The notes under the pieces were generated by a model. It did no database searches. It was not told the DNA's origin and worked only from the letters and a program-made list of their open reading frames with translations. A program made the position numbers and the translations under genes. A stretch of 64,000 bases of DNA. It comes from Bacteroidales bacterium. GTDB lineage: Bacteria; Bacteroidota; Bacteroidia; Bacteroidales; JAADJA01. Of the stretch, positions 6,748 to 62,930 are shown piece by piece. The DNA lies in assembly GCA_041393255.1 (NCBI GenBank), contig JAWKKM010000015.1:468-64467 (forward strand), written 5' to 3'. Numbering within the stretch: the first letter of the stretch is position 1; each line of letters opens with the position of its first letter.

Positions 6748-8168
<1,421 letters not shown>

Positions 8169-27943: not shown

Positions 27944-28689
27944 ATGGTCAAAGCCATCGTAATAGAAAATGATGCACCTATCCGGAATTTTATTGTCCAA
28001 ACGATTGAATCGCTATGTCCCAATGTGGGCATCATTTCAGTCGCTACCGATATCAAAACCGGGATTGGTGCCATCAATGAGCATGAACCTGATTTAGTCT
28101 TACTGGATATAAAACAACCGGACGGAAGTGGTTTTGAATTGGTCGATCATTTTCCTTCCCCCGAGTTTAAAGTGATTTTTTTCTCAAGCTATCCCGATTA
28201 CGCTATCAAGGCAATCCGCTACAACGCCATTGATTATATAACAAAACCCATCAAACAGGAAGAGCTGGCCCAGGCAGTTAAAAAAGCAGAGGACATCATC
28301 AGGTATGAAGAAAAACTTCAGGCCAAAGCCCTTGGCCAAAGCATTAAAAGCCTGAACAGTTCCCACCGCCTCGTTTTAAATCCAGTGACCAGATCCATTT
28401 GGTTGATGCCAACGAAATCATTCACATTGAAGCAGATGGGAATTATTCAACGTTTTATCTGATTGACGGGCGAAAGATTGTCATTTCAAAATCAACCAGG
28501 GAATTTGAAGAACAGTTGCTCGACCAGGGTTTTCACCGAATCCATAAATCACATATTATTAACATTAACCGGATGAACTATTTCGACAAAGCAGATGGCG
28601 GTACGCTGGTGATGTGCAATGGTGATGAAGTGCCTGTTGCTTCAAGGAAACGGGATATGTTGATGGAATTGTTTGATAGTTTGATTTAA
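27944..28689 (+). CDS. LytTR-family response regulator with one frame break near 28380
   Basis: A receiver domain (DLVLLDIKQPDGSG) is joined to a LytTR domain (IIHIEADGNYSTFYL...FHRIHKSHIINI). The frame is restored by adding an A to an A-run. Confidence 0.8.
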
Positions 28690-28881: not shown

Positions 28882-29241
28882 ATGGATAAATATGATTTAG
28901 AGGAAAGATTAATAAAATTTTCGGTTTTAATCATTGAAATTGTAAATGAGATGTCAAGTTCAAAGGCAGGAAATCATTTATCAGGTCAATTGGTTCGTTC
29001 AGGAACGTCTGTTTCATTGAATTATGGAGAGGCTCAAAGTGCAGAATCAAGAAGGGATTTTATCCATAAAATGAAAATAATACTAAAGGAATTACGAGAA
29101 ACATTTGTGTGCCTAAAAATAATTCATTTAAGCAAATTATATAAAACAGAAGAGAAAATCATTAAAGCAAAAAAAGAGAACAATGAATTGATTTCGATAT
29201 TTGTAAAAAGTATAGAAACCGCTCAGAAGAAATTGAATTAA
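28882..29241 (+). CDS. Four-helix-bundle protein (23S rRNA intervening-sequence protein / Avd family)
   Basis: 119 aa. LSGQLVRSGTSVSLNYGEAQSAESRRDFIHKMKIILKELRETFVCLKI is the typical signature of this family. Confidence 0.75.
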   Translation: MDKYDLEERLIKFSVLIIEIVNEMSSSKAGNHLSGQLVRSGTSVSLNYGEAQSAESRRDFIHKMKIILKELRETFVCLKIIHLSKLYKTEEKIIKAKKENNELISIFVKSIETAQKKLN

Positions 29242-29385: not shown

Positions 29386-32300
29386 ATGCAAAAACAAGAA
29401 GCCACCATATTATCTGCAGAACTTTCGGGATTCCAGTCACTGGCTGAGAGCCTGACACCGGAAGAGATCACTCCCATGATGAAGGAGGTTCATTCCCTTG
29501 TTGAGAATACGGCCCGTTTGCACCAGGGTAAACTAAACCGCTACACCGGTGATACTTTCCTAACTGTATTTAATACTTCTAAAACGGCTGCAAAAAACGC
29601 CATTGATTCGGCCTTTGAATTAAGGGATCAATTGATTTCATTTACCCGGGAGAAAAAACCTGGCCTGCCTTTTAACCTGAAATTTGGAATCGCTACAGGT
29701 GGCATTATAATCACAGATATTGGAAATGAGCAGAAACAGCAAACCCTAATGGGCGAAGCCGTAAACCATGCCAACCGCATGAGCCAGTTTGCCGAAGAGG
29801 GGCAAATACTAGCGGATGAAAAAACAATGGAAGGCTTGACAAATGATTTTGAGCTTCAAAAACTGGAACCCATTCCCCTGAAAGGAGGAGTTGAAACGCT
29901 TCCCATTTTTGAACTTACAGGTAAAAAAGAAAAAGAAACTGGATATTAAACCAAAATCAGAACGAAAGATTGTTTCTCCAATGGTGGGCCGCAGCAGGGA
30001 AGCTGATCAATTGGAAGGCCTGATTAAAAATCTGGTTGCAGGAAAAGGTTCCATTGTAAACATTGTTGGCAAGGCCGGAATTGGCAAGTCGCGCCTGATG
30101 GCTGAGATAAAAGTGCAACCCATCATGGAAAAATTACTATTGCTCGAAGGCCGTGCAGTGTCGACAGGGCAAAATCTCAGTTTTCATCCCATTACCAATT
30201 TGATCAAATCCTGGGCTGGGATCACCGAAGATGACTTACCTTCAGTTTCCTCAGAAAAACTGTACCAGGGAATAAAACACAATACTCCTGAACAAGCTGA
30301 TGAAATCTATGCTTTTGTTGCCACCATGATGGGATTGCCGCTGGAAGGAAAATATAAAGAACGTGTAAAAGGAATAGAAGGGGAAGCATTAGAAAAATTA
30401 ATCCTGAAAAACTTACGTGACCTGATTATTGCAGCCACCAGAGACAAACCCCGCATCTACATGATCGAGGATATGCACTGGGCCGACAGTTCTTCCATTA
30501 CCATGCTTGAATCCCTGTTTAAATTATCGGGCAGCCACCGGGTGATGTTTATCAACATCCTGCGCCCGGGTTATAAGGAAACAGGTGACTATATTTTAAA
30601 ATATCTGGTGGATAACCTGCCCGGCGACCATATCACCATCAACATTTCTCCTTTGGCCAATGCAGAATCCAGCGAACTCATCGGTAACCTGCTTCAACAA
30701 GTCCAGCTCCCTGATGAAATCAAAGAGGTTATTATAAAAAAAACAGAGGGAAACCCATTTTTTATCGAAGAAGTGATCCGCAGTTTTATTGATGAAGGTA
30801 TCGTAGAAATTAAAGACAACCTATTCAGGGTAACGGATAAAATTCATACAGCCAAAATCCCCGAAACCATCAATGATGTGATCCTTTCGCGGGTGGATAA
30901 GTTGGATGAAAAAACCAGGGAGTTGTTAAATACAGCATCAGTCATGGGAAGAAACTTCTATTACAAAGTGTTGGAAGAGGCTACCGATACCATTGAGGAA
31001 CTGGATGAACGGCTCGAATACCTTAAAGACGTGCAGTTGATCAGCGAAAGTAAACCGAAGGAAGATATCGAGTTCCTGTTTAAACACGCCCTTGCCCAGC
31101 AGTTGACCTACGATTCCATCATTCAGCAATCGCGGAAAGACCTTCACCTGAAAATTGCCCGTTCCATCGAAAAGGTATTTGCCGAAAACATCCAGGATTA
31201 TTATGGCACGCTGGCCTACCACTACACCAAAGCCGAAAACGAGGAAAAAACAATTCAATATTTGATTTTAGCAGGTGATGAATCCATGAAATCCGGGGCT
31301 TCTTCTGAGGCACTGAATTATTACAAGGATGCACTGAATAGGCTTCCTGAAAGCAGGAAAAATGATAATTCAGTTTTTGAAATAAGAGATCTGCAATTTA
31401 AAGTTGCATTTGCTTACCATGCAATTGGAAAAAATATTGAGGCACGTGCAGGCTTTGAAGCGCTAACCAGAAAATACTTTGGATATAACATTTTAGACAA
31501 TGGGTATCCTCTAATCTACAGAGGAATTATAAGTATGCTCAAGTTCATATTTGTCATAAATAACCAATCTCTATTTTTTAAAAGGAAAGTAGATGATGAT
31601 TTTCATTTATTTGCAAGAACAATTAAACAATGGGGAGAAGCAATAGCAACCGCTAATCCGAGGACTTTTGCCTTTAATGGTTTTCATATCCTTATAAAAT
31701 TAAGCAAGTATCAGCTTCATGATTCTATACACGGACTTGCAGTTTTTGTCGAGAGTAGTTCTATGTATATGTGGACGGGAATTTCATTTAATGTGAGCAG
31801 TAAAATGCTGGAATATGCCGAGAAAGGTGGTGCAGGCCAACATCCTGTTTCACGGGCCACATATCGGTTTATCCTTAAAATGTATGAATTTATGACGGGA
31901 GATTGGAAAGTGGATGAAGATTTTCAACAGGTTTATGAAATGGGTGCACGTGTAGGGCATTTCTGGCCACTTACGATTTATGTAATGTACTCAGGCATGG
32001 TTAATATTGAGCTTGGTAAATTTGATGCACTCCTCGATAATGTTAAAAAGTTGAATGAAATTTCGGATACATTTGATAACAGCCATGCCAAAGCTCAAAT
32101 GTACCGCATGATGGTGCCTGGATATTATCGATTCAGGCGACTCGATGAAGCAATTAAGTTGGCAGATGAAGGAATAGATTATACAAGGAAAACAGGCCAT
32201 TTTGCAATGTTGATGGTTTTGTATTGTTCAAAATCGCAGGTACTCACATTAAAAGGACAACTAAATGAGGCAAGGTTGGCATTTAATGAGGCAGACAAAT

Positions 32301-32782
32301 TAATTGAGCATCACAAAATAATCACGATCTATTATTGCCCATATCTACTTGCAAAAGTAAAACTGGAATTTGAAGAATTAAAATCGCTATCCAAAAGTGA
32401 TAAAAATTATAAATCTAAATTAAAACAGCCACTTAAAACATCTGACAAATTAATCTCAAAATCCAAAAAAATGATCGGTTCGCTTACTGAAGCTTATTTG
32501 GTCAGAGCCCAAATTGATATTTTCCTTAATAAACAAAAGAAAGCTTTTAAAAATCTTCAACTGGCCATTCAGGCAGGTGAAAAATACAACGGCCGCCTCG
32601 AACTTTCCCGCGCTTATTTCGAAACCGGCAAATTCCTCTCCGATCCCAAAGTTAAGTACAATGAATTAAATGGCCACCCTGCCAGCCATTATCTCGAAAA
32701 AGCCAAAACCATGTTTAATGAAATGGATTTGCAATGGGATTTGGAGGAGTATGGGAAGTTTGTTAATCAAAATCCCTCTTGA
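29386..32782 (+). CDS. Class III nucleotidyl cyclase - STAND (AAA_16-like) P-loop NTPase - TPR/helical repeat protein, copy 1 (frame break in an A-rich run near 29925-29940)
   Basis: Cyclase motifs are RYTGDTF and GEAVNHANR. Walker A is GKAGIGKSRL and Walker B is RIYMIEDMHWADSSS. The C-terminus is long and helical. ORFs 29386-29949 and 29891-32782 are colinear with the single intact ORF of copy 2. Confidence 0.8.
29936..30495 (+). repeat. Near-identical 560-bp block shared with 33334-33893 (NTPase N-terminal half)
   Basis: The two blocks are colinear at a constant offset of 3398 nt with no indels. I saw only scattered substitutions by eye, including a stretch of about 190 nt with 2-3 differences. 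Confidence 0.85.
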
Positions 32783-32787
32783 GAACT

Positions 32788-35700
32788 ATGAAACAACAAG
32801 CCACCATATTGTCAGCAGAATTGTCGGGTTTCCAGATTTTGGCTGAGAACCTGCCACCGGATGAAATTGCTCCTTTGCTGGATGAGATACACGCCCTTGT
32901 TGAAAATACAGTCCGCCTACACCAGGGGGAAATTAACCGCTATACCGGCGATACTTTTCTTGTAATATTTCATGCCGGGAAATCGGCTGCTAAAAATGCC
33001 TTGGATGCTGCTTTTGAAATTAAAGATCAATTAGATTCCTTTATCGGCGATAAGCAACTGGAGCAACCTTTAAACCTGAAAATTGGAATTGCCAGCGGTG
33101 GGATAATAGAAGCAGGCATTGGTGCCGATCAGAAGCAACAAACCCTGATGGGCGAAGCCGTGAACCATGCCACCCGCATCAGCCGCTTTGCCGGGGCAGG
33201 CCAGCTACTCGCCGACGACATTACACTGGATGGCCTGAATGATGATTTCGAGTATCAAAAACTGGAGCCCATCCCAATAAAAGGAGGAACAGAGACCCTC
33301 CCCATTTTTGAATTAACAGGAAAGCTTAGAAAGAAACTGGATATTAAACCAAAATCAGAACGAAAGATTGTTTCTGTAATGGTAGGCCGTAGCAGGGAAG
33401 CGGAGCAATTGGAAAGCCTGATTAAGAACCTGGTTGCAGGAAAAGGCTCCATCGTAAATATTGTTGGCAAGGCCGGAATTGGCAAGTCGCGCCTGATGGC
33501 TGAGATAAAAGTACAACCCATCATGGAAAAAGTACTATTGCTCGAAGGCCGTGCAGTGTCGACAGGGCAAAATCTCAGTTTTCATCCCATTACCAATTTG
33601 ATCAAATCCTGGGCTGGGATCACCGAAGATGACTTGCCTTCAGTTTCCTCGGAAAAACTATACCAGGGAATAAAACACAATACTCCTGAACAGGCCGATG
33701 AAATTTATGCCTTTGTTGCCACCATGATGGGATTGCCACTTGAAGGTAAATACAAAGAAAGGGTAAAAGGAATCGAAGGGGAGGCATTGGAAAAACTCAT
33801 CTTAAAAAACCTTCGTGACCTGATCATTGCTGCCACCAGAGACAAACCCCGCATCTACATGGTCGAGGATATGCACTGGGCCGACAGTTCTTCGTTAACC
33901 CTATTCGAGTCACTTTATAAACTTTCACTGCAATATCCTGTGATGTTTATTAATGTAATGCGGCCCGGCTACAAAGAAACCGGGGATTATATTTTAAAAC
34001 ACCTGGTTGATAATTTTCCGGGCAACCACACGACCATCAATATTGACCCTTTAGAAGAAACGGAATCCACAAACCTGATCAAGAATCTTTTACGCGAAAC
34101 ACCCCTGCCTGTTGAAATCCAAAAGATGATTATTCGCAAAACTGAGGGAAATCCTTTTTTTATTGAGGAGATCATAAGAAGTTTTATTGATGAAGAAATC
34201 ATTGAGGTTAAAGAGGGAAACTTTATTGTTACCGAAAAGATCAAAGATGTTAATATCCCGGAAACCATCAACGAGGCCATATTATCGAGGGTAGATAAAC
34301 TGGATGAAAAAACCAGGGAACTCCTCAACACAGCTTCGGTAATGGGACGAAATTTTTACTATAAAGTTTTGGAAGAAGCAACCGATACTATTGAAGAACT
34401 CGACGACCGCTTGTCCTACCTTACCGAAGTACAGCTTATCAGTGAAACCAAAAAGAAGCAGGAAGTTGAGTATCTTTTTAAACACGCATTGGCCCAGCAA
34501 CTGACCTACGATGCCATGATGCAGCAATCGCGCAAGGAGACCCACTTAAAGATCGCCCGATCCATTGAGAAGGTATTTGCTGATAATATCAATGAATTTT
34601 TTGGGACCTTGGTTTATCATTATGAATTGGCAGAGGATAAAGAAAAAACCATCTATTATTTATGGTTGGCTGGTGAAGAAGCTATGAAATCTGGTGCCTC
34701 ATCAGAAGCCCTTCAATTTTTTGAAAACGCACTTGATGCTATACCGCAGAAGAAAAAAGATGACTCAAAAGATTTTGAAATAAGAGTCCTGAGAATCAAT
34801 ATTGCCAATATGTATCATGCAGTGGGACGCAATATCGAATCGGTTGAGCTCTTTGAATTCATTTTTGAGAAATACTTTAATTACAGGGTTGCAAAAACGG
34901 AAAAGGGTATCATGCTGAGGGGTATTTGGGGAATGATCACGATCGCTTTCGCATTTAGATTTCCAGGGTTATTTTTTAGAAAATCAATAAAAAAGGAAGA
35001 AGAATCGATTTGTTCTCATCTTCTCGGGTGGGGTACCCCTATTTCTACAATAAATCCGAGACATTTTGTTTTTAAGCCATGTGATGCGGTCAGGAGATTT
35101 ATTAAGTACGATACCATGGGCTCTCAGGCAGTTCTGGAACTTTACATCCAAATTTCATGTATATTTCTTTGGGCATCATTTTCTTACCCAACTACCAGGA
35201 AGATCATTAATCTTGTTGATCAGGCAGATCTTCAATTAAACCCAAGACCTCTTTTGTCTCTATTCATGACAAAAAGCATGTTTAACTTAAATACCGGAAA
35301 ATGGCTTTACAATATTGAAGCCGATGAAGTATTTAACGCAGGAATCAAAGCGGGTGAGCTATGGATGACTAGTGTCACTGCCTTGTATCTTGGTTTGCAG
35401 AAGATCGAGATGGGGGATTATGCAAGTGCTATTGAGATTTCGGATAAACTTAAAGAATTAGGAAATTCATTTGAAAACAGTTTTGCAATCTCACAAGGAT
35501 ATAGAGTGAGATCGGTATGCCTAATGAAATTCAGGAAATTTGAACACCTGCAGGAATTAATAGACGAGACTAAGGTTTACATGCATAATACAGATAACAA
35601 GTTACACGCATTGCTGGTAGAATTGGTACAAAGTCACCTCCATATTCACAAAAACAATCTGGAAGCAGCAGTCAAATCTTTCGAGGAAGCAAAAGAGTCT

Positions 35701-36180
35701 CTGGAGATAATCAAGAGTGTTGCGAGCTATTATACGTATTATCTGATAACAAAAATTCAGCTGGGCTTAGCTTTGGTGAATGACAAAAGAAACATGAATA
35801 TTAAAAACATTAAAGAAATCAGGGAGATGTTAAAAACATCCAAAAAGCTGATCTCCAAATCCAAAAAATTTGTCAGTAACCTTACCGAAGCTTATGTGCT
35901 AAGAGCGAGAATATTCATGTTTCAGGGTAAGCTTGGAAAGGCAATCAAAAATCTTCAACTGGCAATTCAAGCAGGCGAAAAATACCAAAGCCGCCTTGAA
36001 CTTTCTCGTGCCTATTTCGAAACCGGTAAATTCCTTTCCGATCCAAAAACAAAACAAAAACAACTCAACGGACTTTCAGGAAAAGAATATCTGGAAAAAG
36101 CCAAAACCATGTTTGAAGAAATGGATTTGCAGTGGGATTTGGAGGAATATAATAAGTTTAACCATACCCGAACATTGTAA
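32788..36180 (+). CDS. Class III nucleotidyl cyclase - STAND P-loop NTPase - TPR/helical repeat protein, copy 2 (intact)
   Basis: Same architecture as copy 1 in a single ORF. I chose ATG 32788 (MKQQATILSAELSGF) by analogy with the copy 1 start. It begins 5 nt after the copy 1 stop. Confidence 0.85.
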   Translation: MKQQATILSAELSGFQILAENLPPDEIAPLLDEIHALVENTVRLHQGEINRYTGDTFLVIFHAGKSAAKNALDAAFEIKDQLDSFIGDKQLEQPLNLKIGIASGGIIEAGIGADQKQQTLMGEAVNHATRISRFAGAGQLLADDITLDGLNDDFEYQKLEPIPIKGGTETLPIFELTGKLRKKLDIKPKSERKIVSVMVGRSREAEQLESLIKNLVAGKGSIVNIVGKAGIGKSRLMAEIKVQPIMEKVLLLEGRAVSTGQNLSFHPITNLIKSWAGITEDDLPSVSSEKLYQGIKHNTPEQADEIYAFVATMMGLPLEGKYKERVKGIEGEALEKLILKNLRDLIIAATRDKPRIYMVEDMHWADSSSLTLFESLYKLSLQYPVMFINVMRPGYKETGDYILKHLVDNFPGNHTTINIDPLEETESTNLIKNLLRETPLPVEIQKMIIRKTEGNPFFIEEIIRSFIDEEIIEVKEGNFIVTEKIKDVNIPETINEAILSRVDKLDEKTRELLNTASVMGRNFYYKVLEEATDTIEELDDRLSYLTEVQLISETKKKQEVEYLFKHALAQQLTYDAMMQQSRKETHLKIARSIEKVFADNINEFFGTLVYHYELAEDKEKTIYYLWLAGEEAMKSGASSEALQFFENALDAIPQKKKDDSKDFEIRVLRINIANMYHAVGRNIESVELFEFIFEKYFNYRVAKTEKGIMLRGIWGMITIAFAFRFPGLFFRKSIKKEEESICSHLLGWGTPISTINPRHFVFKPCDAVRRFIKYDTMGSQAVLELYIQISCIFLWASFSYPTTRKIINLVDQADLQLNPRPLLSLFMTKSMFNLNTGKWLYNIEADEVFNAGIKAGELWMTSVTALYLGLQKIEMGDYASAIEISDKLKELGNSFENSFAISQGYRVRSVCLMKFRKFEHLQELIDETKVYMHNTDNKLHALLVELVQSHLHIHKNNLEAAVKSFEEAKESLEIIKSVASYYTYYLITKIQLGLALVNDKRNMNIKNIKEIREMLKTSKKLISKSKKFVSNLTEAYVLRARIFMFQGKLGKAIKNLQLAIQAGEKYQSRLELSRAYFETGKFLSDPKTKQKQLNGLSGKEYLEKAKTMFEEMDLQWDLEEYNKFNHTRTL
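33334..33893 (+). repeat. Partner of the 29936-30495 near-identical block
   Basis: See 29936-30495. Confidence 0.85.
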
Positions 36181-36192
36181 TGGTTTTTAAAA

Positions 36193-36200
36193 TATGTTTG
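36193..36200 (+). promoter_or_regulatory. -7 box TATGTTTG upstream of the DUF4143 ATPase gene
   Basis: TAnnTTTG 54 nt upstream of the ATG at 36254. It overlaps a weak AT-rich hairpin (36191-36218). Confidence 0.3.
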
Positions 36201-36253
36201 TTTATATCGAAACATATTGTTATTTTAGCAGCATTATTCAACTATAACTGAGC

Positions 36254-37462
36254 ATGATTATAAGAACTTCGTATCTTGAAAAACTCAAAATCTACACTGG
36301 GAAACCTATTATTAAAATAATCTCCGGAATGCGAAGGGTTGGGAAGAGTGTATTACTAAGACAATATCGCGAATTTCTTCTTGAGTCTGGCGTAGATGAA
36401 AAAAATATCCTGCTTATCAATAAGGAATCTATTGAGTTCGATTTTATTTCAAATTATCAGGAACTTTACAATTTCATCAAAAAGACAGTCTCACCGCAAC
36501 CTGGAGTTAAGCATCTTCTGATTGATGAAATCCAGGAAATTGACCAATGGGAAAAAGCAATAAATTCATTTTTTGCCGAGGGATCATATGATATTACCGT
36601 TACCGGTTCGAACGCACGGATGCTTTCAACCGAACTCTCAACACTACTGGCAGGTAGGTATGTTGAAATTTCTGTTTATCCCTTTTCTTTTAAGGAATTT
36701 ATACAGGTAAGGACACAAACGCATCCGGGCGAAAATACCGGCGACTCGTTTAAACTATATCTGCGTTATGGTGGCCTTCCAGGCATCCATTCATTACCCC
36801 TCACCGACGAAGCTGTTTTCCCTTACCTGAATGCTATTTTTAATAGCGCACTGCTAAAAGATGTTGTTTTACGCAATAAGATCAGAGATGTGGAACAGCT
36901 TGAAAGAATAACCCGTTTTATTTTTAGTAATTGTGGAAATATTACTTCTGCTAAAAACATTGCCGATTACCTGAAATCCCAGCGAACCAAAATTTCTATT
37001 GAAACGGTACAGAACTATCTGTTTTATCTCAGCCAGGCTTTTATGATACACAAAGTGAGGCGTTACGACCTGAAAGGCAAAAAAGTGCTCGAATATTCGG
37101 AAAAGTATTATTCGGCTGATGCAGGCTTAAGATTCGGTATTGTTGGATATACTGACGATGATATTTCAGGGGTACTTGAAAATATTGTTTTCATTGATTT
37201 GCTTAATCGTGGATACACTGTTTATGTTGGTCAGATAGGTCAGCTTGAAATTGATTTTATCGCTGAAAAGCAGGAAGAAAAAAGATATATACAGGTTACT
37301 TACCTGTTGAGTAGCGAAAAAACTGTTGAAAGAGAGTTTGGAAACCTGATGCGCGTGAATGATAATTTCCCTAAAATGGTTCTTTCAATGGACGAATACT
37401 GGGATAAAACCAGGCAGGGCATTGTAAGAAAAAACATTATTGACTTTCTGGACGAGGAGTGA
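36254..37462 (+). CDS. AAA+ ATPase of the AAA_14/DUF4143 type
   Basis: Walker A is GMRRVGKS and Walker B is HLLIDEIQEI. The size (402 aa) and C-terminal region are typical of DUF4143 ATPases. Confidence 0.75.
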   Translation: MIIRTSYLEKLKIYTGKPIIKIISGMRRVGKSVLLRQYREFLLESGVDEKNILLINKESIEFDFISNYQELYNFIKKTVSPQPGVKHLLIDEIQEIDQWEKAINSFFAEGSYDITVTGSNARMLSTELSTLLAGRYVEISVYPFSFKEFIQVRTQTHPGENTGDSFKLYLRYGGLPGIHSLPLTDEAVFPYLNAIFNSALLKDVVLRNKIRDVEQLERITRFIFSNCGNITSAKNIADYLKSQRTKISIETVQNYLFYLSQAFMIHKVRRYDLKGKKVLEYSEKYYSADAGLRFGIVGYTDDDISGVLENIVFIDLLNRGYTVYVGQIGQLEIDFIAEKQEEKRYIQVTYLLSSEKTVEREFGNLMRVNDNFPKMVLSMDEYWDKTRQGIVRKNIIDFLDEE

Positions 37463-46626: not shown

Positions 46627-47376
46627 TTACCTTTTAAATCCTTCAATAAATTCAAACAGCTCTTCGCGCCTGCCAGAGGCAACAGGGATTTCTGTATTAT
46701 CCGACAGGAATACCTTTCCGCCTTCCGATTTTTCATAACGCTTAAAATGTTTGAGATTGATGAGGTAGGAACGGTGGATCCTGAAAAAGCCATTCTCTTT
46801 CAGCAATGCTTCATATTCTTTGATGGGTTTGGATATCAAAATTGGATTATCCGATTTTAGATGAACCCTTGTATAATTCCCATCTGCACTGCAATAGGAA
46901 ATGTCAGATAATTCAACCAGGAAAATGTTTTCTGCATCTTTCAATACAATTTTATCATAGTCCTTCTTGGAGAAACCATGAAGCGCATTTTTATATTGAA
47001 TTTTAAATTTCGGGTCAATCTGTTTCCGGGCTTTATCAACAGCTTCAACCAATTCATCAGAATCAACAGGTTTTAAAAGATAATCGAGTGCGCTAAAACG
47101 GAAAGCCTTTAAAGCATATTCCTGGAAGGCAGTAATAAATATCACTTTGAATGAAATGGTATCGAATAGTTCCAATAAATCAAACCCGGTTCCCTCGGTC
47201 AGCTGGATATCCAAAAATACCAGATCAGGTTTGGTTCTGTTAATCAGCTCAAATCCTGCTTTAACAGATTCTGCGCTACCAAGAACCTCCACATCAGGAC
47301 AATGCCCTTTTAAAAGATTTTGCAAGCGCTCCAGGTTTTGCACTTCGTCCTCTATGATAACAGCTCGAATCAACAT
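46627..47376 (-). CDS. LytTR-family response regulator
   Basis: A receiver domain (DLVFLDIQLTEGTG) joined to a LytTR domain (FFRIHRSYLINL). The ORF is intact. Confidence 0.85.
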   Translation of the reverse strand: MLIRAVIIEDEVQNLERLQNLLKGHCPDVEVLGSAESVKAGFELINRTKPDLVFLDIQLTEGTGFDLLELFDTISFKVIFITAFQEYALKAFRFSALDYLLKPVDSDELVEAVDKARKQIDPKFKIQYKNALHGFSKKDYDKIVLKDAENIFLVELSDISYCSADGNYTRVHLKSDNPILISKPIKEYEALLKENGFFRIHRSYLINLKHFKRYEKSEGGKVFLSDNTEIPVASGRREELFEFIEGFKR

Positions 47377-47466
47377 TAAGATTTTGAGGGTTAAAAATAA
47401 TCAAATTCCAGCAACCTGCAACCTCAGGAATTTTTACTATTTTAGTAAACTGAATTTCCCCAAGTT

Positions 47467-49511
47467 ATGACATCAGTCAATTTTTTATCGAAAATAATCA
47501 TTTTTTACTTTTTTTTATTTTGCTTTTGGCCTGGAGTGATCCAAGCTCAAATATTTGATAAGTTCGAGCGGGTCAATACCGACAGCCTTAAACAGTTGCT
47601 CGAAGGGAAATCTGATTTGGAAACGATAGAAATCTATTTTCAAATTGCCAAAGGTTATTTTGTTATTGAGCCTGATTCCTGTATGAAATACGCTGAAATT
47701 GCATCGCAACTTGCTTTGGAGTCAAAAGATCAGGATCTGATCGCGATTTCAAATTACTACCTCGGCAGGGCATATTATTATAAAGGGCAATATGAAGAGG
47801 CAGCCGAACAATTCATCAATGGTTTTGACTATTTTATGAGAAAAAGGACACTGCTCAAATTTTGAATATGGCAACGGAATTATCCTTTGTTTATCTGTAT
47901 GCCAGAAATTACGATGTCCTTCGAAAGCACCTGGAGGATGTGACAAATTATATAGGTTGGATAAAAGACACGGTTCAATTGTCATTTATCATTACTGGAG
48001 CCGGCTATTGCTACTATGTTATGGGCGACTATGAACGCTCCAATAAACATTACGAATTGTTTTTTGATATCTGTGACAAATATCCCATACCGCTTGAACT
48101 TAAGGCACATTTTTACAGATATACAGGTATTAATTATGAACGCATGGGAGACTTGCCTAACGCTCTTGAATATTGCCAGCAGGCAAATGAACTACGTAAG
48201 GAAATTAATTTAAACCCACTTTATGACTTCATGGGATCTATTTATTTTAAAATGGATAGCCTGGATAAAGCGGAACAATATTTTCAGAAATACCTTGAAC
48301 TTAACAAGGATGGTGACATCGTAATTACACCCGGGATTGCTTCAGGTATGCTCGGTAAAATTTGGTCGAAGCGCGGACAGTTTAAGAAAGCTGAAGCCGC
48401 TTTTAAGTTTGCGCTGGAGCTGGCGGAATGGGTTTATGAGCATAAAATGTATGCAAAAACCAAAGAGGCGGACATCAGGAGTAACTATATGGCCCATCAG
48501 TCAGTGGGCAGTTTTAGGGAAGATCAGGCGCTGAATATGATTGCCTCCAATCATTACGAATTGTATAAATTATACGATCGGCAATCGATGGCCCAAAAGG
48601 CACTTGATGAATATATCCTCTATCATGAAGCTTTGAAAGAATATGAAAATTTCGAGCAAGTTGCTGCCATCGAGGAGATCAAAGACCGCTATGAAGCTGA
48701 GAAGAAAGAACAGACCATTACGACCCTTTCACAGGAAAAGGCAATGGGCCAAATGCAGTTAAGGCAATCGCGTATCATTGTTTTCGCAATTGGCGGACTT
48801 TTTTTGTTAGCAGTGGCATTGGCCATTTTATTTATCCGCATGATCAGGATCAGGTCGGAGCAGAAATCCGTGGTACTTGAACAAAAATTACTACGCTCAC
48901 AAATGAATCCTCATTTTATTTTCAATGCACTTTCCAATATCACCAACCTGGTTGAAAAACAGGATACTGTTGCGGCATCAAAATTCCTGAATCGTTTTGC
49001 ACGGTTGGTGAGGCATATCCTGGAAAGTACCCGCGAGGATTTTATTCCGCTTGATGATGAACTCAAAAACCTTGAAAACTACCTGGAACTTCAGCAACTC
49101 AGGTTTAATGATAAATTCACCTATTCCATCATACTCGATGATGATGTTGTTGCCGATGAAATCATGATCCCTACCATGCTGGTACAGCCATTTGTTGAGA
49201 ATGCCATTGAGCACGGCATCAAACCCAAGGAAGAAAGCGGGCATGTGAAGGTCAGGTTTTATAAGCAAAATCATTTGATAACTTGTGAAGTGGAAGATGA
49301 TGGCATCGGGAGGGAGCAAGCCATCAGGATTGAACCGTTCAAGCATCCACACCGGTCGTACGGCGTTGCCATTGCCCGCGAACGGCTGGCTGCCATGAGT
49401 AAAAAAATCCGTATTAAGGTAAAATTGAACATTGTTGATCTAAAAACAGATTCCGGAGAATCTTCGGGCACCAAAGTCATCATCAATATGCCTTATAAAA
49501 TGGCGGTGTAA
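47467..49511 (+). CDS. TPR-containing sensor histidine kinase (LytS/His_kinase type) with one frame break near 47850
   Basis: Signal/TM segment, TPR repeats, another TM segment, then LRSQMNPHFIFNAL (His_kinase PF06580-type H-box) and a HATPase domain. The frame is restored by adding a T to a T-run. Confidence 0.8.
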
Positions 49512-50037
49512 AAACTAAATAATTTTAAATAATTGAATTCTAAACTTCATTAATAGGTAAAAATCACTTTTAATATTCAGGTCTGTAAATTTCTTTGTCC
49601 CATTGATTGTAATTTCCCAGCATTATAAAATAATATTTAACATTTACAGGGAGAATGAAATAAACCACAATTGACTGAAAGTACCTAAGTTTTGTGCTGT
49701 GAATGAAATTCAAAAATTGAATATCGAACAAGGAATGATGAATTATGATTTTTAGAAGCCTATTGAAACAAATAGGATGCAGGCAATGATAATGGCAAAC
49801 TTCAAAATTCGATATTCGTTAATCGATATTCGGCATTTATATATTTATAGAGACAAAAGTGACTGCAATAGAATTGCAGGGTTTTAACCTTTAACTAGAT
49901 CAAAAAAACCAATATTCACACAACCACAAGCCCCTTTCATACATTTCCAGGGGCCATTCATACATCTACCAAAAAAATCATGGTTTGATACTTTATTTTA
50001 GTGGGAAAATAACAAACACTTATAATAATACCCGATC

Positions 50038-52761
50038 ATGAAAAAACTTACACTTTTATTAGCCATCTTTATGATAGCAAATTTGCTGTATTCTCAAACC
50101 AAAGATTCGTGCCTGCCCGAAGGGATCACTTTTACTACCCAGTTACAAATTGATAATTTTCAAACCAACTATCCGGGTTGTACCGAGATAGAGGGGGATG
50201 TCGTAATTGGTTATTCCTGGGGTGGAACTGATATTATTAACCTTACTGGATTGAATGTGTTGACATTCATTGGAGGTGATCTGACTATTTGGAATAATTA
50301 TGTCTTAACCAGTCTGGCAGGTCTTGATAATTTAAATTCAATAGGAGGCGACCTGACTATTGAATATAATCCTTTGACGAGTCTGGCAGGATTGGAAGGA
50401 ATTGACAGTATTATTGGTTGCCTGAATATTGTAAATAATATTTTCCTGGCAAGTTTGGCAGGGCTGGATAATTTGATTTCCATTGGCGGTTGCCTTAACA
50501 TTAATCAAAACGGATCGCTAACCAGCCTCACAGGACTGGAATGCTTGACGTGTATTGGATCTAATTTCTTATTATACGATAATGAAGTGCTTACCAGCCT
50601 ATCTGGATTGGCTAATCTTACTTCTGTGGGAAGTTCCCTGAAAATTCAAGGTAATTATGGATTGATTAGCCTGGCGGGTCTTGATAATTTAAATTCATTA
50701 GGAGGTGACCTGACTATTGCAACTAATTCTTTGACGAGTCTGGCAGGATTGGAAGGACTTGACAGTATTGTTGGTTGCCTGAATATTGAATATAATGGTG
50801 GATTGATCAGCCTTACAGGATTAGAAGGAATTACCTCGGTAGCCGGTGACCTTAATATTCATTCAAATAATTCCTGACCAGCCTTGCAGGGCTGGATAAT
50901 GTGGCTTCGATAGGGGGTGATATTAAAATACATTATAACTCTTCTCTGACAAGCATGTCAGGGTTGGGGAATTGACCTCCATTGACGGTGATCTCAGGTT
51001 TCAAGGTAATGATGCCTTGACCAGCCTTACAGGGCTGGATAATGTAACATCCATTGGTGGTAATTTGAGTTTGTCGAGTAATGATGCCCTGACCAACCTA
51101 TCTGGACTATATAATTTAACATCTGTTGGTGAGGGTCTTTATGTTAGTGATAATGATGCCCTGACCAGCCTTTCTGGATTGGCTAATGTTACTTCTGTCG
51201 GTAGTTCCCTGAAGATTCAAGGTAATAGTGGATTGACCAGCCTGATTGGATTGGAAAATGTTACTTCTGTTGGGGAATTTGCTGGATATTCAAGGTAATA
51301 GTGGTTGCCAGCCTGACTGGATTGACTAATCTTACTTCTGTCGGAAGTTTACTGTGGATTCGAGGTAATAGTGGATTAACCAGCCTTTCGGGATTGGAAA
51401 ATATTAACGCTGTAGGGTCCCTGGCCATTCAAGGTAATATTGGATTGACCAACCTGGCTGGTCTTGAAGGATTGACTTCCATTGGCGGGGGTACCTTCGA
51501 TAACATTTAACCCTGCTTTGACTGACTTTGACAGGGCTTGGATAATATCGAGGCAACCAGTATAACAAATTTAGCTATTCATTCTAATGGTTCATTAAAC
51601 ATGTGTGAAGCAATATGGTTGTGCAATTATCTGGCCAGTCCAAACGGAAGTGTAAATATTTATAATAATGTCCAAGGATGCAAATAATTCAGGAGAAATT
51701 GCCAATGCCTGCGGCCTTAATCCGCCTTGCCTGCCATTTGGAAACTACTATTTTTATCACAAGATGAAATTGATGATTTCCCAATCAATCACCCCAATTG
51801 TAATGAACTTGAAGGATATGAGAATTGGGGGTGACGATATTCGAGCTTATTGGCTTAAATCAGGTAACTTCGATAGGGAGTAATCTCTCAATTGGAGATT
51901 GGACGTATTACTTTGGAGGAAATCCCATGCTTACAGACTTATCGGGATTGGAAAATGTGACCTCCGTAGAGGAAGGTCTCAGGATTATAAATAACCCTGC
52001 CAACCAGTCTTACTGGACTGGACAATTTAACATCCATTGGGGTGGCCTGAATTATGGAGTAATTCATAGACAATACAACCTATCCGGATTGTACAACGTA
52101 ACATCTATTGGCGAGAACCTTTATATTAGCGATAACTCTGTAGCCAGTCTTACAGGACTGGATAATGTAACCACTATTGGGGTAGCCTTGAATTATGGAA
52201 TAATTTTGCACTATCCAGCTTATCCGGACTGTACAACCTAACATCTATTGGTGAGAACCTTTATATTGTAAATAATAGTGCCCTGACCAGCCTTACGGGA
52301 CTGGACAATATTGAAGTGATTCAATCGCATACCTTGTGATTCAAAATAATCAAACTTTTATTATCTGCGAAGTTCAAAGTATATGCGATTATCTTACAAG
52401 TTCTAATGGAGAAGTAGAAATTTGGGGAAACGCTCCCGGATGCAATAGCCCCGAAGAAATTGACAGTCTGTGTAACATAACTGTAGTTCAAAATTTTTAC
52501 GAAGAGTATGAAATTTTAATTTCTCCAAACCCAATAAACATTCAGGCAGTTTTAAGTTTCAATTTAACAACACCCCGACCGGTTGATATTCGTATTTACA
52601 ACACCACCGGCATTTGCCTCAACAGCTGGCAATTCCAAAATCAGCAGCCTGGTCAAAAAGAGTTTAAACTTGATTTGAAAGATTTACAAGCTGGCATTTA
52701 TTTCTGTCAGGTACAAATTGGGAATAAAATGGTAACAAAGAAAATCATTAAAACAAAATAG
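50038..52761 (+). CDS. Highly repetitive LRR-like surface protein with two Cys-rich modules and a T9SS C-terminal domain (at least 8 frame breaks)
   Basis: The signal peptide is followed by dozens of repeats of about 22-24 aa (LTSLxGLxNLTSIGGxLxIxxN). The Cys-rich modules lie near 51590-51720 and 52336-52480. The C-terminus ISPNPINIQAVLSF...GIYFCQV.. is a T9SS sorting domain. The two breaks I checked are restored by adding a base to a homopolymer. Confidence 0.7.
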
Positions 52762-52929
52762 CCTTGAGCACCTTAACTTGCTATCATTCCATAATATCAC
52801 AAAGTCATTGGGTTCATTCCTGATAAGGACTGACATGGATTGACAACTCAATAAAAGTGCAAAAAACGGTCTCCCGATGCCTATTGTCGGGAGCGATATC
52901 TTTTTCCTTTCATGCATCCCGAAATTCCC

Positions 52930-52937
52930 TAATTTTG
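52930..52937 (+). promoter_or_regulatory. -7 box TAATTTTG
   Basis: TAnnTTTG 27 nt upstream of the ATG at 52964. Confidence 0.35.
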
Positions 52938-52963
52938 GATATTCAACAATCCCCGATTTTAAT

Positions 52964-53806
52964 ATGAGCAATGAAATAAAACAAATAACGAAGAGGTCTG
53001 GTGAGAAGGTTCCCTTTGATCAGCAAAAATTGAAGCGGTCGCTGGAACGAACCGGAGCGGGTGAGCAAGAGATTCAAAAGATAATTCAACTCGTAAACAG
53101 CAGGCTGGTTGATGGAATGTCAACCCATAAAGTTTATCAAATGGCTTACTCCATTCTTCGTAAGAAATCGCATAAGGTCGCTGGAAAATACCGATTGAAA
53201 AAAGCCATTTTTGAATTGGGGCCCACCGGCTATCCTTTCGAACGGTTTGTGGGGGAATTGCTGAAATTCCAGGGATACCAGGTTCAGGTAGGACAAATCG
53301 TCAAAGGCCATTGTGTTGATCATGAAGTGGATGTGATTGCTGAAAAAGAAAAACAAAAGTTCATGATCGAATGCAAATTCCACCAGGATGCCAGTAAAAA
53401 GAGTGATGTTAAAGTTTCGTTGTACATACAATCCCGTTTTTTAGATGTTGAAAAGGAATGGAAGAAGCAACCGGAGGAAAGCTTGCGGTTTCACCAGGGC
53501 TGGATTGTTACCAACACCCGTTTTACTGATGATGCTATTCGCTTTGGAAAGTGTGCCGGCCTGAAATTAATTTCCTGGGATTATCCCCAACAGGGCAGTT
53601 TAAAACAACGTATTGATTCTTCCGGGTTGCATCCGGTTACTGCACTGAGTGGCATTACAAAAGCGGAAAAACAAGAGGTTCTTAATAAGGATATTGTATT
53701 GTGCAGAGACCTGAAACCGGAACACTTATTGGAAATTGGAATACGGGAAAATCGCATCAAAAAAATTATGGAAGAAGTTAATGAACTAATTGTGAGCAAA
53801 AATTGA
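52964..53806 (+). CDS. ATP-cone domain fused to an Mrr-like (PD-(D/E)xK) restriction endonuclease domain
   Basis: The N-terminus IKQITKRSGEKVPFDQQKLKRSLERTG...VYQMAYSILRK is ATP-cone-like. The core is GYPFERFVGELLKFQGYQV...HEVDVIAEK..FMIECKF, a D...ExK arrangement. I prefer the start at 52964 (MSNEIK). Confidence 0.7.
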   Translation: MSNEIKQITKRSGEKVPFDQQKLKRSLERTGAGEQEIQKIIQLVNSRLVDGMSTHKVYQMAYSILRKKSHKVAGKYRLKKAIFELGPTGYPFERFVGELLKFQGYQVQVGQIVKGHCVDHEVDVIAEKEKQKFMIECKFHQDASKKSDVKVSLYIQSRFLDVEKEWKKQPEESLRFHQGWIVTNTRFTDDAIRFGKCAGLKLISWDYPQQGSLKQRIDSSGLHPVTALSGITKAEKQEVLNKDIVLCRDLKPEHLLEIGIRENRIKKIMEEVNELIVSKN

Positions 53807-56690: not shown

Positions 56691-56724
56691 CCCATTAAAG
56701 GTGAATATTATTAATTTTGAAAAG

Positions 56725-59124: not shown

Positions 59125-59178
59125 GTTCGAGGTTCGGAGTTCGAAGTTCGGAGTTTTTAGTTCGGAGTTTAAAGTTTG
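59124..59178. repeat. Short tandem repeat: GTTCGGAGTT three times at a 14-nt period
   Basis: Copies at 59132-59141, 59146-59155 and 59160-59169, in the spacer between the two permease genes. Confidence 0.7.
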
Positions 59179-59201
59179 ATGTGTATTTTAAAGTTTATCC
59201 G

Positions 59202-62714: not shown

Positions 62715-62930
62715 TTGCAGTTGATGGCTATATGTTTGTTCTTTCTCAAGTATATCTAAATGAATATATAACATTGGTTGTCCCAATAAGGTTGCATCCT
62801 GGTAATCTTTATCTTTTTTTCAGTGATTTTTAAGTAAAAAAGTACCCAATACCTTATTAAGAACAATTATAAATTAACCCTATATTTAAAAATTGGCTTT
62901 CGAAAATTTGGCAGAAAATACATTATATGT

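Follow-up and report, generated by a model that had tools for sequence, protein, structure and literature searches.

A tandem pair of cyclase-homology/STAND/TPR-like proteins in a Bacteroidales contig: candidate signalling ATPases with a hypervariable sensor

Two tandem paralogs in the window (the whole 64-kb stretch of Bacteroidales DNA that was analysed) encode an uncharacterised variant of the known STAND-cyclase architecture, and our judgement is evenly balanced as to whether they are, in the reading we prefer, STAND signalling ATPases of the MalT/PH0952 type and not a dedicated defence system. The signalling reading is supported by the Pfam domains, the invariant residues of the NTPase and the strong purifying selection on it, the AlphaFold2/Foldseek resemblance to PH0952, a head nearer to CyaB/Cya2 than to PycC, the conservation of E-R-D-N-R in the window's subclade and of D-K-D-N-R in Desulfobacterota-type members, the upstream LytTR regulators, the frequent type IX secretion cargo genes, a parallel TPR-His_kinase module, the radical SAM/methyltransferase linkage in the Desulfobacterota clade, and the best NCBIfam relative (a TOMM kinase/cyclase fusion). 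Ordinary signal transduction, which the first-pass annotation had offered as an equally valid alternative to defence, is the better fit, the partners being a response regulator and secreted-protein genes.

Gene organisation and assembly

Two genes of about 1130 aa separated by 5 nt had been described at first. This holds for gene 2, an intact ORF with its ATG at 32788 (P0001, MEZ5196728), and for the spacer (the TGA of gene 1 at 32780-32782 is followed by exactly 5 nt, GAACT, and then by the ATG of gene 2), but gene 1 as assembled consists of two ORFs (Table 1), which carry separate NCBI annotations (MEZ5196726 and MEZ5196727); the alignment of the second with gene 2 spans aa 176-1131. The source of the frameshift is one surplus base in GGTAAAAAAGAAAAAGAAACTGG, near 29,930, as comparison with gene 2 and the closest intact relative (P0123) shows, and any single-base deletion in this run gives a gene 1 ORF of 1131 aa with 60% identity to gene 2. 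The upstream LytTR regulator is also frameshifted, near 28378 (tblastn against the intact 253-aa regulator of L003), and intact 260-aa versions of it with at least 90% identity were found in other samples.

Because the window contains several further split genes, the housekeeping gene ahcY among them, the split of gene 1 is probably an assembly error. The frameshifts in both gene 1 and the regulator, and the frequent splitting or truncation of family genes in metagenome contigs, could also be read as a decaying locus, with both genes true pseudogenes and the array a non-functional remnant. We consider this very improbable, as the further split genes, ahcY included, indicate indel errors in the assembly, both parts of gene 1 are conserved and, apart from the frameshift, open (dN/dS 0.12-0.28 in the paralog comparison), and gene 2 is intact.

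Table 1. Features of the locus (positions in the window)
Feature	Position	Strand	Evidence
LytTR-family response regulator (receiver + LytTR), ORFs 27944-28462 and 28399-28689	27944..28689	+	Pfam Response_reg, LytTR
Small four-helix-bundle gene, 23S rRNA IVS protein family, 119 aa, between regulator and gene 1	28882..29241	+	PF05635 E 2e-12; TIGR02436
Gene 1, first ORF: cyclase-homology domain only, 187 aa, TAA created by frameshift	29386..29949	+	Guanylate_cyc E 1.4e-21
Gene 1, second ORF (+1 frame): STAND NTPase, winged-helix region, TPR-like solenoid, 963 aa	29891..32782	+	AAA_16 E 6e-17, weak TPR_MalT
A-rich run GGTAAAAAAGAAAAAGAAACTGG, one surplus base vs gene 2 and intact relative P0123	29921..29943	+	Sequence comparison
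Gene 2: intact cyclase-homology/STAND/TPR-like protein, 1130 aa	32788..36180	+	ORF, Pfam, AlphaFold2, Foldseek
Gene 2 cyclase-homology domain, aa 3-167; hexad E11, R51, D55, T, N126, R130	32794..33288	+	Pfam, alignment to Cya2 2W01, Foldseek
Gene 2 Walker A P-loop GKAGIGKS, aa 227-234	33466..33489	+	G227, G230, G232, K233, S234 invariant in 44 sequences
Gene 2 Walker B IYMVEDMHW, aa 356-364	33853..33879	+	E360, D361, H363, W364 invariant
Hypervariable middle of helical solenoid, ~aa 660-1040, presumed ligand-binding sensor module	34765..35907	+	Paralog identity, dN/dS
Conserved C-terminal tail LELSRAYFETGKFLSDP...MFEEMDLQWDLEEY	35908..36177	+	~75% paralog identity; weak TPR_12/TPR_2
AAA_14 + DUF4143 ATPase, 402 aa, PADLOC candidate PDC-S01	36254..37462	+	Pfam; PDC-S01 E 7e-151
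Type IX secretion cargo protein (Por_Secre_tail), 917 aa	37592..40345	+	Pfam

Domain composition and comparison with known systems

Pfam matches in gene 2 were Guanylate_cyc (aa 3-167, E 2e-15), AAA_16 (aa 199-388, E 2e-17) and, weakly, TPR (aa 1034-1077). Walker A (GKAGIGKS) and Walker B (IYM(I/V)EDMHWADSSS) were found in both paralogs, and besides these motifs R392-P393, N455-P456 and H566 are invariant family-wide, which we take to be the STAND sensor-1, GxP and winged-helix His motifs. In the AlphaFold2 model of gene 2 (mean pLDDT 82) a cyclase fold and a P-loop domain are followed by an all-alpha solenoid that spans roughly aa 585-1130. By Foldseek the head resembles Cya2, CyaB and Rv1625c (TM 0.76-0.88), and 6MFV (the PH0952 STAND-TPR protein, E 5e-10) was the only STAND protein in the top list. 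Every part of the NLR-like tripartite design proposed in the first-pass annotation was thereby recovered: the N-terminal class III cyclase domain (Guanylate_cyc matches in both genes and the modelled fold), the STAND/AAA_16 switch, a complete nucleotide-binding oligomerisation module with its Walker motifs, and a variable, helical TPR-like remainder as sensor.

The mycobacterial proteins Rv0386, Rv1358 and Rv2488c, whose cyclase-ATPase-HTH architecture has been described (10.1101/2024.03.06.583649), have the same order of N-terminal class III cyclase, AAA_16/COG3899-type ATPase and helical repeats. As had been remarked from the start, they differ in their HTH: a LuxR-type HTH is absent from the window proteins, whose C-terminus is a TPR-like tail and which also carry two catalytic substitutions, belong to a different phylum and have other partners (LytTR regulator, type IX secretion cargo, DUF4143). 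With MalT and PH0952 the window proteins share the layout of NTPase, winged helix, arm and TPR sensor and, likely, the switch from an ADP-closed state to an ATP-open oligomer with the double autoinhibition described for this type of STAND protein (PMC6468293). The effector, however, is a cyclase-homology domain and not a DNA-binding domain, and the window proteins resemble MalT only weakly in sequence (best TPR_MalT E-value 5.5e-4, in gene 1).

The best NCBIfam match is the TOMM system kinase/cyclase fusion (TIGR03903, E 6e-70, aa 26-667, spanning cyclase, ATPase and helical parts), a type of protein linked to a biosynthetic cluster; its score of 236 bits is nevertheless far under the family cutoff (706), the window proteins have no protein kinase domain at the N-terminus, and TOMM biosynthesis genes are absent from the surroundings. 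Avs and bNACHT proteins likewise combine an effector, a STAND NTPase and a repeat sensor, with paralog diversification and sensor variability, but the window proteins match no PADLOC Avs or NACHT model, their NB-ARC match is sub-threshold and covers the P-loop only, their head is a non-toxic cyclase-like domain, and there is no defence-island context. The head is a class III cyclase homolog that matches the PycC models of Pycsar and Pucsar (best E 6e-12); PycC is a small stand-alone cyclase whose adjoining gene encodes a cNMP-binding TIR or TM effector, whereas no such effector is present here and the head is nearer to the ordinary cyclases CyaB (5e-32) and Cya2 (1.5e-29) than to PaPycC 7R65 (8e-13).

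The cyclase-homology head

In both window copies Glu replaces the first metal-binding Asp and Arg replaces the substrate Lys. Among 107 full-length relatives the canonical hexad is kept only in Desulfobacterota-type members, which retain D-K-D-N-R; in Bacteroidales members metal site 1 is V/G/T/A/N/R/Q and metal site 2 R/N/S/F, most of these members being more degenerate than the window copies. Within the window's subclade 14 or more members with 50-76% identity keep the E-R-D-N-R set, a sign that purifying selection acts on this site. Of the cyclic-nucleotide output initially proposed for the pair, the cyclase-homology domain stands, but with two catalytic substitutions, and with essential residues missing in most Bacteroidales relatives, such an output cannot be assumed and is, judged from the residues, uncertain.

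The same residues could be explained by a loss of catalysis in the Bacteroidales clade, the head serving as a dimerisation or protein-binding platform and the STAND protein as a regulated scaffold (for partners such as the LytTR regulator or the DUF4143 ATPase) with no second messenger, which we regard as rather doubtful. About 90% of members have E/V/G/T/A/N/R/Q/S/I at metal site 1, replacements are also frequent at metal site 2 (E/R/N/S/F) and at the transition-state Asn (T/S/D/Q), and several head types (e.g., T-K-E-Q-H) are kept within their own subclades though incompatible with catalysis; moreover, no cNMP receptor is linked, and the head is the module that is most divergent and most easily exchanged. 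The window copies, however, retain D55, N126 and R130, both of their substitutions (D to E and K to R) are conservative, the conservation of E-R-D-N-R across the subclade suggests a working nucleotide site, and the modelled fold is intact (active cyclases match it with TM up to 0.88).

Sensor variability and module shuffling

The family evolves like NLRs, with tandem arrays, a strongly conserved NTPase, a hypervariable sensor and shuffling of heads and sensors. Identity between gene 1 and gene 2 is 93% in the NTPase and 14-28% in the middle of the solenoid; judging from dN/dS, the NTPase (0.03-0.07) is under strong purifying selection, against 0.18-0.27 in the solenoid middle, the dS of which differs from that of the NTPase and thus indicates recombination. 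R1074, G1080, L1083, L1114 and D1117 in the C-terminal tail (the last ~90 residues) are invariant family-wide. Arrays of 2-4 paralogs occur at many loci, head and sensor modules assort independently upon the conserved NTPase, and relic 3' ends and truncated copies occur. A block of NTPase-sensor and DUF4143 gene, beginning at the cyclase/NTPase linker of gene 2, is shared by the window and L001 at 80-94% nucleotide identity (91-94% in the DUF4143 part), with unrelated flanks and heads.

Genomic neighbourhood and the defence reading

The four-helix-bundle gene and the DUF4143 ATPase that had been reported beside the pair were both confirmed (28882-29241, PF05635; 36254-37462, AAA_14 + DUF4143), the product of the former scoring 73 bits for TIGR02436 (cutoff 24); in L009, L027 and L106 the slot between regulator and family gene is taken by a PDDEXK_3 gene. 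In a census of 19 loci, which are phylogenetically non-independent, type IX secretion cargo genes accounted for 22 of the 107 neighbours, LytTR regulators for 12 and DUF4143 genes for 11; a LytTR regulator lay directly upstream at 7 of the 19 upstream positions (Fisher P=1e-4), and a DUF4143 gene at 8 of the 17 positions immediately downstream (Fisher P=4e-7), the latter genes coming from several distant lineages (19-95% identity). With L105 and L106 added, the regulator adjoins the family gene upstream in the window, L003, L009, L023, L025, L027, L057, L105 and L106, and it is at most three genes away in L001, L005, L018, L070, L073 and L103. Cargo genes also flank the family gene in L103, L105 and L106, and at least 12 Bacteroidales loci have it beside both a LytTR regulator and cargo genes. 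Neighbours in the Desulfobacterota clade are radical SAM (rSAM/SPASM-like) and methyltransferase genes, not defence genes; the pVip candidates among them were rejected as generic radical SAM matches (viperin model 51.8 bits, cutoff 180).

The defence role put forward in the first-pass annotation is not supported by this context, with its cargo, LytTR and DUF4143 neighbours, and is retained as a minority possibility. An NLR-like conflict or anti-phage module, which we hold to be unlikely, would recognise an invader protein through the variable solenoid, oligomerise through the STAND domain and cause growth arrest, either by the linked DUF4143 ATPase/PD-(D/E)XK nuclease (PDC-S01) or by a cyclic nucleotide that an unlinked effector would detect. 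The tandem arrays, hypervariable sensor, independent assortment of modules, shared block, and relic and truncated copies described above would suit such a module, as would the downstream DUF4143 linkage across lineages, occasional Fic/SoFic, AbiEii and IS200-type transposase neighbours, and the inactive cNMP cyclase domains known from predicted conflict systems (PMC7159879). The outer flanks also vary and the PDC-S01 candidate is significantly linked, which is not the pattern of conserved, syntenic core genes that had been named beforehand as speaking against defence.

PADLOC, however, matched the family protein only with PycC, weakly and in the cyclase domain, and neither its NTPase nor its sensor was matched by any Avs, NACHT or other defence model. 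PDC-S01 is extremely abundant and counts as an unvalidated candidate (PMC12988326). Defence models other than PDC-S01 gave singleton matches only among the neighbours, just two relatives (23% identity) were found in 2.9 million viral contigs, and the most consistent partners are the response regulator and secreted-protein genes. A cyclase alone is non-toxic, and no cNMP-gated effector is linked: the scan of window ORFs of at least about 110 aa found no cNMP_binding, TIR or patatin domain, in agreement with the earlier remark that no cNMP-activated effector lay nearby.

A proposed signalling switch

By analogy with MalT and PH0952, the preferred signalling reading would start from an ADP-bound NTPase held closed through sensor-arm contacts; a ligand, probably a protein or peptide, would bind the variable solenoid and release autoinhibition, followed by exchange of ADP for ATP and oligomerisation. 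Since class III cyclase domains are, to our knowledge, active as dimers only, oligomerisation would bring the N-terminal domains together and switch the output on. This output would very likely be cAMP-type synthesis in the ancestral Desulfobacterota-type members, and in the window copies may be a cyclase activity that is weak or altered, or else the binding of nucleotides and a scaffold function. The proteins of gene 1 and gene 2 would sense different ligands. The cyclase-STAND protein may be the sensory partner of the co-oriented upstream LytTR response regulator, the module putatively controlling the adjacent type IX secretion cargo genes. A parallel module at 46.6-52.8 kb in the window consists of a regulator, a TPR-His_kinase and a cargo gene, and there the TPR sensor kinase occupies the place of the cyclase-STAND protein.

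Several points count against signalling. No cNMP receptor is linked or present within the 64-kb window, the catalytic substitutions and losses described above mean that a cyclic-nucleotide output cannot be taken for granted, and the regulator has a normal phospho-acceptor motif, so that it may simply use an unlinked kinase. The arrays, module shuffling, relic fragments and linkage to diverse PDC-S01 genes are also features that conflict systems show more typically.

Domain architecture and predicted structure

The first-pass annotation described both genes as a class III cyclase domain followed by a STAND-type NTPase and helical repeats, and Pfam recovered the cyclase, AAA_16 and weak TPR matches in gene 2 (MEZ5196728, on a 134,742-bp Bacteroidales MAG contig); the Guanylate_cyc match is above the cutoff in both genes. 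Both motifs quoted in that annotation, Walker A (GKAGIGKS) and Walker B (IYMVEDMHWADSSS), are present in gene 2. Among 44 aligned members, the Walker A sequence and an hhhhED Walker B are invariant, as are R392-P393, N455-P456 (GNP) and H566 (FKHAL), which we take, by our own assignment, to be the STAND sensor-1 arginine, the GxP motif and the winged-helix histidine. Read from the alignment, this set of motifs would fit a working STAND switch of the type found in MalT and PH0952. [quoted passage not shown]

An AlphaFold2 model of the gene 2 protein (built on 44 homologs, mean pLDDT 82) consists of four parts: a cyclase fold, a P-loop domain, a poorly modelled stretch (aa 502-581, pLDDT <50) where the candidate winged-helix fold lies, and an all-alpha solenoid from about aa 585 to 1130 with pLDDT mostly >85. 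With Foldseek, the N-terminal cyclase-homology domain (the head) matched Cya2, CyaB, Rv1625c and CyaC with TM scores of 0.76-0.88, and the TPR-sensor STAND PH0952 (6MFV, E 5e-10) was the only STAND protein in the top list. The window proteins are classed with the STAND NTPases (AAA_16, MalT/PH0952-like) by their P-loop motifs, repeat sensor and likeness to 6MFV, and they have the class III cyclase fold.

Coordinates and matches of the features in the window and at related loci (Lnnn, loci with family genes in other genomes or metagenomes)
Feature	Position	Length	Content, match or identity	Source
Gene 1 ORF 1	29386-29949	187 aa	cyclase domain only	
Gene 1 ORF 2	from 29891, +1 frame	963 aa	remainder of gene 1	
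Gene 1 stop codon	32780-32782		TGA, 5 nt before gene 2	
Gene 2	32788 (ATG)-36180	1130 aa	intact ORF	
Guanylate_cyc (PF00211)	gene 2 aa 3-167		E 2e-15	Pfam
AAA_16	gene 2 aa 199-388		E 2e-17, above cutoff	Pfam
TPR	gene 2 aa 1034-1077		weak matches	Pfam
Gene 1 vs gene 2, head			aa identity ~65%	
Gene 1 vs gene 2, NTPase			aa identity 93-100%; one tract 98% at nucleotide level	
Gene 1 vs gene 2, sensor	aa 700-1000		aa identity 14-28%	
Gene 1 vs gene 2, C-terminus	last 90 residues		aa identity ~75%	
Four-helix-bundle/23S_rRNA_IVP gene	28882-29241			
Spacer before DUF4143 gene	36181-36253	73 nt	inverted repeat AATATGTTT ... AAACATATT	
DUF4143 gene	36254-37462		AAA_14 + DUF4143; PDC-S01 E 7e-151, full length	Pfam; PADLOC
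Second regulator/T9SS module	46627-52761		LytTR regulator (minus strand), TPR-containing LytS-type histidine kinase, T9SS cargo	
MT-A70 methyltransferase gene	5289-6023			
Restriction-endonuclease-like gene	52877-53806		Mrr_cat + ATP-cone	
PDDEXK_3 genes	L009 9457-9870; L027 1971-2342; L106 9159-9530			
Relic 3' ends of family gene	L001 14775-14876, 15198-15264		3' of DUF4143 gene	
Stop/start overlaps of two-gene clade	L077 622-628; L087 665-671; L089 11323-11329; L091 3429-3435; L092 1673-1679		ATGnTGA or ATGGTAA	
Conserved pair after family gene, Desulfobacterota	L037 5916-7938; L051 3906-5935; L089 13409-15495; others		~335-aa protein + rSAM/SPASM-like enzyme	

The reading frame of gene 1

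The 5-nt spacer reported between the genes was found as described. The single ORF of about 1130 aa reported for gene 1 was not: as assembled, gene 1 consists of two ORFs, because its A-rich run GGTAAAAAAGAAAAAGAAACTGG holds one surplus base (one base more than in gene 2 and in the closest intact relative). With one base deleted, gene 1 encodes a protein of 1131 aa that is 60% identical to the gene 2 product.

At least six genes in the 64 kb are broken by frameshifts or premature stops (in 6748-8003, 27944-28689, 29386-32782, 56701-61591 and 61595-62786), including the housekeeping gene ahcY for S-adenosylhomocysteine hydrolase (in two fragments), the LytTR regulator gene, gene 1, two FtsX/MacB permease genes and the gene of a protein linked to type IX secretion (T9SS). 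This number of broken genes suggests indel errors in the MAG assembly and not biology. Since other genes in the window are also split, and since intact, near-identical copies of the upstream LytTR regulator occur in other samples, the frameshift in gene 1 is most likely such an error; a real pseudogene is less likely, and an array of decaying pseudogenes is in our view very improbable. Programmed frameshifting or phase variation at the A-rich run was also considered. A +1 shift at AAA-AAA-G could work mechanically, but no stimulatory element was found, the intact relative is just one base shorter, and the window has many split genes of unrelated kinds, so that an assembly error is more likely.

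Conserved neighbourhood in Bacteroidales

The window shares a recurrent layout with L001-L003, L009, L018, L023, L025, L027, L029, L057, L103, L105 and L106, in which one or more T9SS cargo genes are followed by a LytTR response regulator, an optional small gene (four-helix-bundle or PDDEXK_3), one to three family genes, an optional DUF4143 or IS200-type transposase gene and a further T9SS cargo gene. Family genes at these loci are as little as about 42% identical to gene 2, and the outer flanks differ. The 107 neighbours (up to five genes away at 19 loci) included 22 proteins with the cargo domain Por_Secre_tail, 12 LytTR regulators and 11 DUF4143 proteins. The regulator lies directly upstream at 7 of 19 positions (P=1e-4) and DUF4143 directly downstream at 8 of 17 (P=4e-7), both P values being indicative only, as the loci are phylogenetically non-independent. 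The DUF4143 partners come from several lineages that lie far apart (19-95% identity).

A second module in the window has a regulator and cargo of the same kinds with a histidine kinase, and the cyclase-STAND-TPR gene occupies the position that the sensor kinase holds there; the layout of regulator, cyclase-STAND gene and cargo has in the second module its canonical counterpart with a sensor kinase. In that module, a 132-aa TPR ORF and a 549-aa TPR-His_kinase ORF, possibly one split gene, are followed by Recep_L/Por_Secre_tail cargo genes.

The best supported reading, to which we would give an even chance, is that the family proteins are signalling switches whose role is linked with the LytTR regulator and with the genes for secreted proteins. 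A ligand would bind the variable solenoid, the STAND domain would then exchange its nucleotide and oligomerise, and the dimer-dependent cyclase-homology heads would meet to give the output. This course of events, from the binding of a ligand to the dimerisation of the heads, is modelled on the MalT/PH0952 paradigm, and the tie to the regulator is one of gene order alone. Should the signalling reading be true, NLR-like evolutionary dynamics would by themselves be no signature of immunity. The Bacteroidales branch is a tractable case: the conserved regulator and T9SS cargo predict a concrete regulatory readout, the paralogs differ almost only by an exchangeable sensor module, the cyclase site can be seen at various stages of degeneration, and there is linkage to PDC-S01, an abundant defence candidate.

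The slot between regulator and family gene is filled by a four-helix-bundle gene in the window and by PDDEXK_3 genes at three other loci; the two families are mutually unrelated, and the slot appears to be a hotspot for small cassette-like genes that may be mobile. On the other side of the family genes, the spacer before the DUF4143 gene holds an inverted repeat and a TAnnTTTG-like motif, which we take to resemble the Bacteroidota -7 promoter element, and these motifs suggest that the DUF4143 gene may have its own promoter. Promoter and terminator counts over 27.4-40.6 kb were not distinguishable from those in shuffled sequences, the sigma-70 consensus used being unsuited to Bacteroidota.

Catalytic residues of the heads

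Aligned to Cya2 and canonical members, both window copies have the first metal-binding Asp replaced by Glu (SAELSGF) and the substrate-specifying Lys replaced by Arg (NRYTGD), and they keep the second Asp and the transition-state Asn and Arg. The resulting set (E, R, D, N, R) has three of the five canonical residues and two conservative replacements. Among 107 full-length relatives, the canonical residues are kept only by members of the Desulfomonilia/Syntrophaceae type; in the Bacteroidales clade, metal site 1 holds one of E, V, G, T, A, N, R, Q, S or I, and frequent residues are E, R, N, S or F at metal site 2 and T, S, D or Q at the transition-state Asn position. Most Bacteroidales relatives have more degenerate sites than the window copies. 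A functional nucleotide site is possible in the window heads because the E-R-D-N-R set is conserved inside their own subclade. The cyclic-nucleotide output proposed in the first-pass annotation cannot, on these residues, be taken for granted. A variant of the signalling reading makes the head a catalytically dead adaptor; we regard this variant as unlikely.

Mosaic paralogs and exchange of modules

By the uneven identity of their modules, gene 1 and gene 2 are mosaics. Across homologs, sensor types and head types assort independently: the gene 2 sensor is 64-83% identical to those of proteins sharing only 28-45% head identity, unrelated sensors occur in proteins with heads 67-75% identical, and gene 1 has a head 92% identical to that of one family protein (P0015) and a sensor that matches another (P0022). 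The window and L001 share a DNA block (80-94% identical) that runs from the head/NTPase linker to the stop codon of the DUF4143 gene, with unrelated heads and outside flanks, and it seems that the NTPase-sensor and DUF4143 block moves or recombines as one. The DUF4143 proteins of the two loci (at 13488-14696 in L001) are 95% identical; the family proteins beside them are 74% identical overall, with unrelated heads. The dN/dS ratio is 0.03-0.07 for the NTPase and 0.18-0.27 for the sensor, and synonymous divergence is unequal between modules, as recombination would predict.

The family often shows tandem arrays of two to four copies, and truncated genes and relic 3' ends are frequent too. Two relics of the conserved 3' end of a family gene at L001 indicate former array members that were deleted. 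In one clade, the family gene is consistently in two parts at profile position ~440, at the P-loop/helical boundary, with overlapping stop and start codons, which looks like a natural fission with translational coupling and not an error.

Comparison with defence systems and related architectures

The first-pass annotation saw no cNMP-activated effector nearby, and a domain scan of window ORFs of at least about 110 aa likewise found no cNMP-binding, TIR or patatin proteins; cNMP_binding and TIR are also absent from the 25 commonest Pfam families of the 107 Bacteroidales-clade neighbours. A Pycsar cyclase has a neighbouring effector that joins a cNMP-binding domain to TIR or TM, and no such effector was found in the window. 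The PADLOC matches to the PycC HMM are partial (E 6e-12 to 9e-4), and in a profile search of the head CyaB (5e-32) and Cya2 rank about 17-19 orders of magnitude above Pycsar PaPycC (7R65, 8e-13). Pycsar membership was rejected on both grounds, the missing linked effector and the closer relationship to CyaB/Cya2. The known defence-STAND models (Avs/bNACHT) do not match the window proteins: neither gene 2 nor gene 1 ORF 2 has any PADLOC match in its NTPase or sensor, or a Pfam match to NACHT.

The architecture of cyclase, AAA_16 and repeats is itself already known. Rv0386-type mycobacterial proteins share it and add a LuxR HTH, whereas Pfam finds no HTH domain in the window proteins, the C-terminal tail giving TPR matches only. 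The best NCBIfam match, TIGR03903 (TOMM kinase/cyclase fusion), scores 236 bits against a cutoff of 706 and begins at model position 313, past the kinase, and the window proteins have no N-terminal kinase. They fall outside Pycsar, Avs/bNACHT, LAL/Rv0386 and TIGR03903.

The gene downstream of gene 2 fits the PDC-S01 model (AAA ATPase + DUF4143/PD-(D/E)XK), which makes it a candidate for a defence function. PDC-S01, an ATPase/PD-(D/E)XK fusion from 'guilt by embedding', is very abundant and not yet validated (PMC12988326). On the defence-island enrichment of homologs, put forward earlier as a check, PDC-S01 was the only defence model enriched among the 107 neighbours (11 of 107), the other PADLOC defence models occurred as singletons, and the outer flanks vary. 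The original proposal of defence sensors draws on the NLR-like evolutionary dynamics and on this linkage, but with known defence STANDs unmatched, a toxic or cNMP-gated effector absent, no clear defence-island context, and a conserved association with regulatory and secretion genes instead, it seems improbable; if true, it would bring a new effector logic to bacterial NLR-like immunity. Quite improbable, too, is an unrecognised NLR-like conflict system in which heads and sensors are shuffled on a conserved NTPase so as to follow changing targets, and the output is relayed to the linked ATPase/nuclease PDC-S01, either by a non-canonical nucleotide from the Glu/Arg-substituted site or by direct recruitment; PDC-S01, among the commonest unvalidated defence candidates, would then gain a sensor partner and a mechanism. 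The Mrr_cat/ATP-cone and MT-A70 genes of the window, each at least 17 kb away, are not considered part of the locus.

The literature searched contains no experimental study of a cyclase-STAND-TPR switch or its role, though such proteins are common in genome databases, and no description of the Bacteroidales branch, its degenerate heads, its module shuffling or its regulator, T9SS and DUF4143 partners. The main text of a 2026 paper on STAND phylogeny is silent on cyclase effectors, and DefensePredictor has nothing relevant.

Distribution of the family and neighbours in Desulfobacterota

The family is large (at least 1860 matches were scored) and was found in Bacteroidales (Lentimicrobiaceae and relatives) and in Desulfobacterota MAGs. 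A single-protein scan of GTDB genomes gave at least 14 loci, and an alignment-based scan of metagenomes was more useful; viral contigs held two remote relatives only.

The Desulfobacterota clade has rSAM/SPASM-like enzymes, B12-radical SAM enzymes and methyltransferases as neighbours. A link to viperins was rejected, the PADLOC pVip matches (51.8 bits against a cutoff of 180) reflecting generic radical SAM similarity. In loci of the Desulfobacterota type, a conserved pair comes after the family gene, consisting of a protein without a family match (LLDDIKDIETD motif) and an rSAM/SPASM-like enzyme, and genes for a B12-radical SAM enzyme and a CMAS-type methyltransferase often come after the pair. 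From this gene content, the pair and its neighbours may form a small biosynthetic operon controlled by the cyclase-STAND protein.
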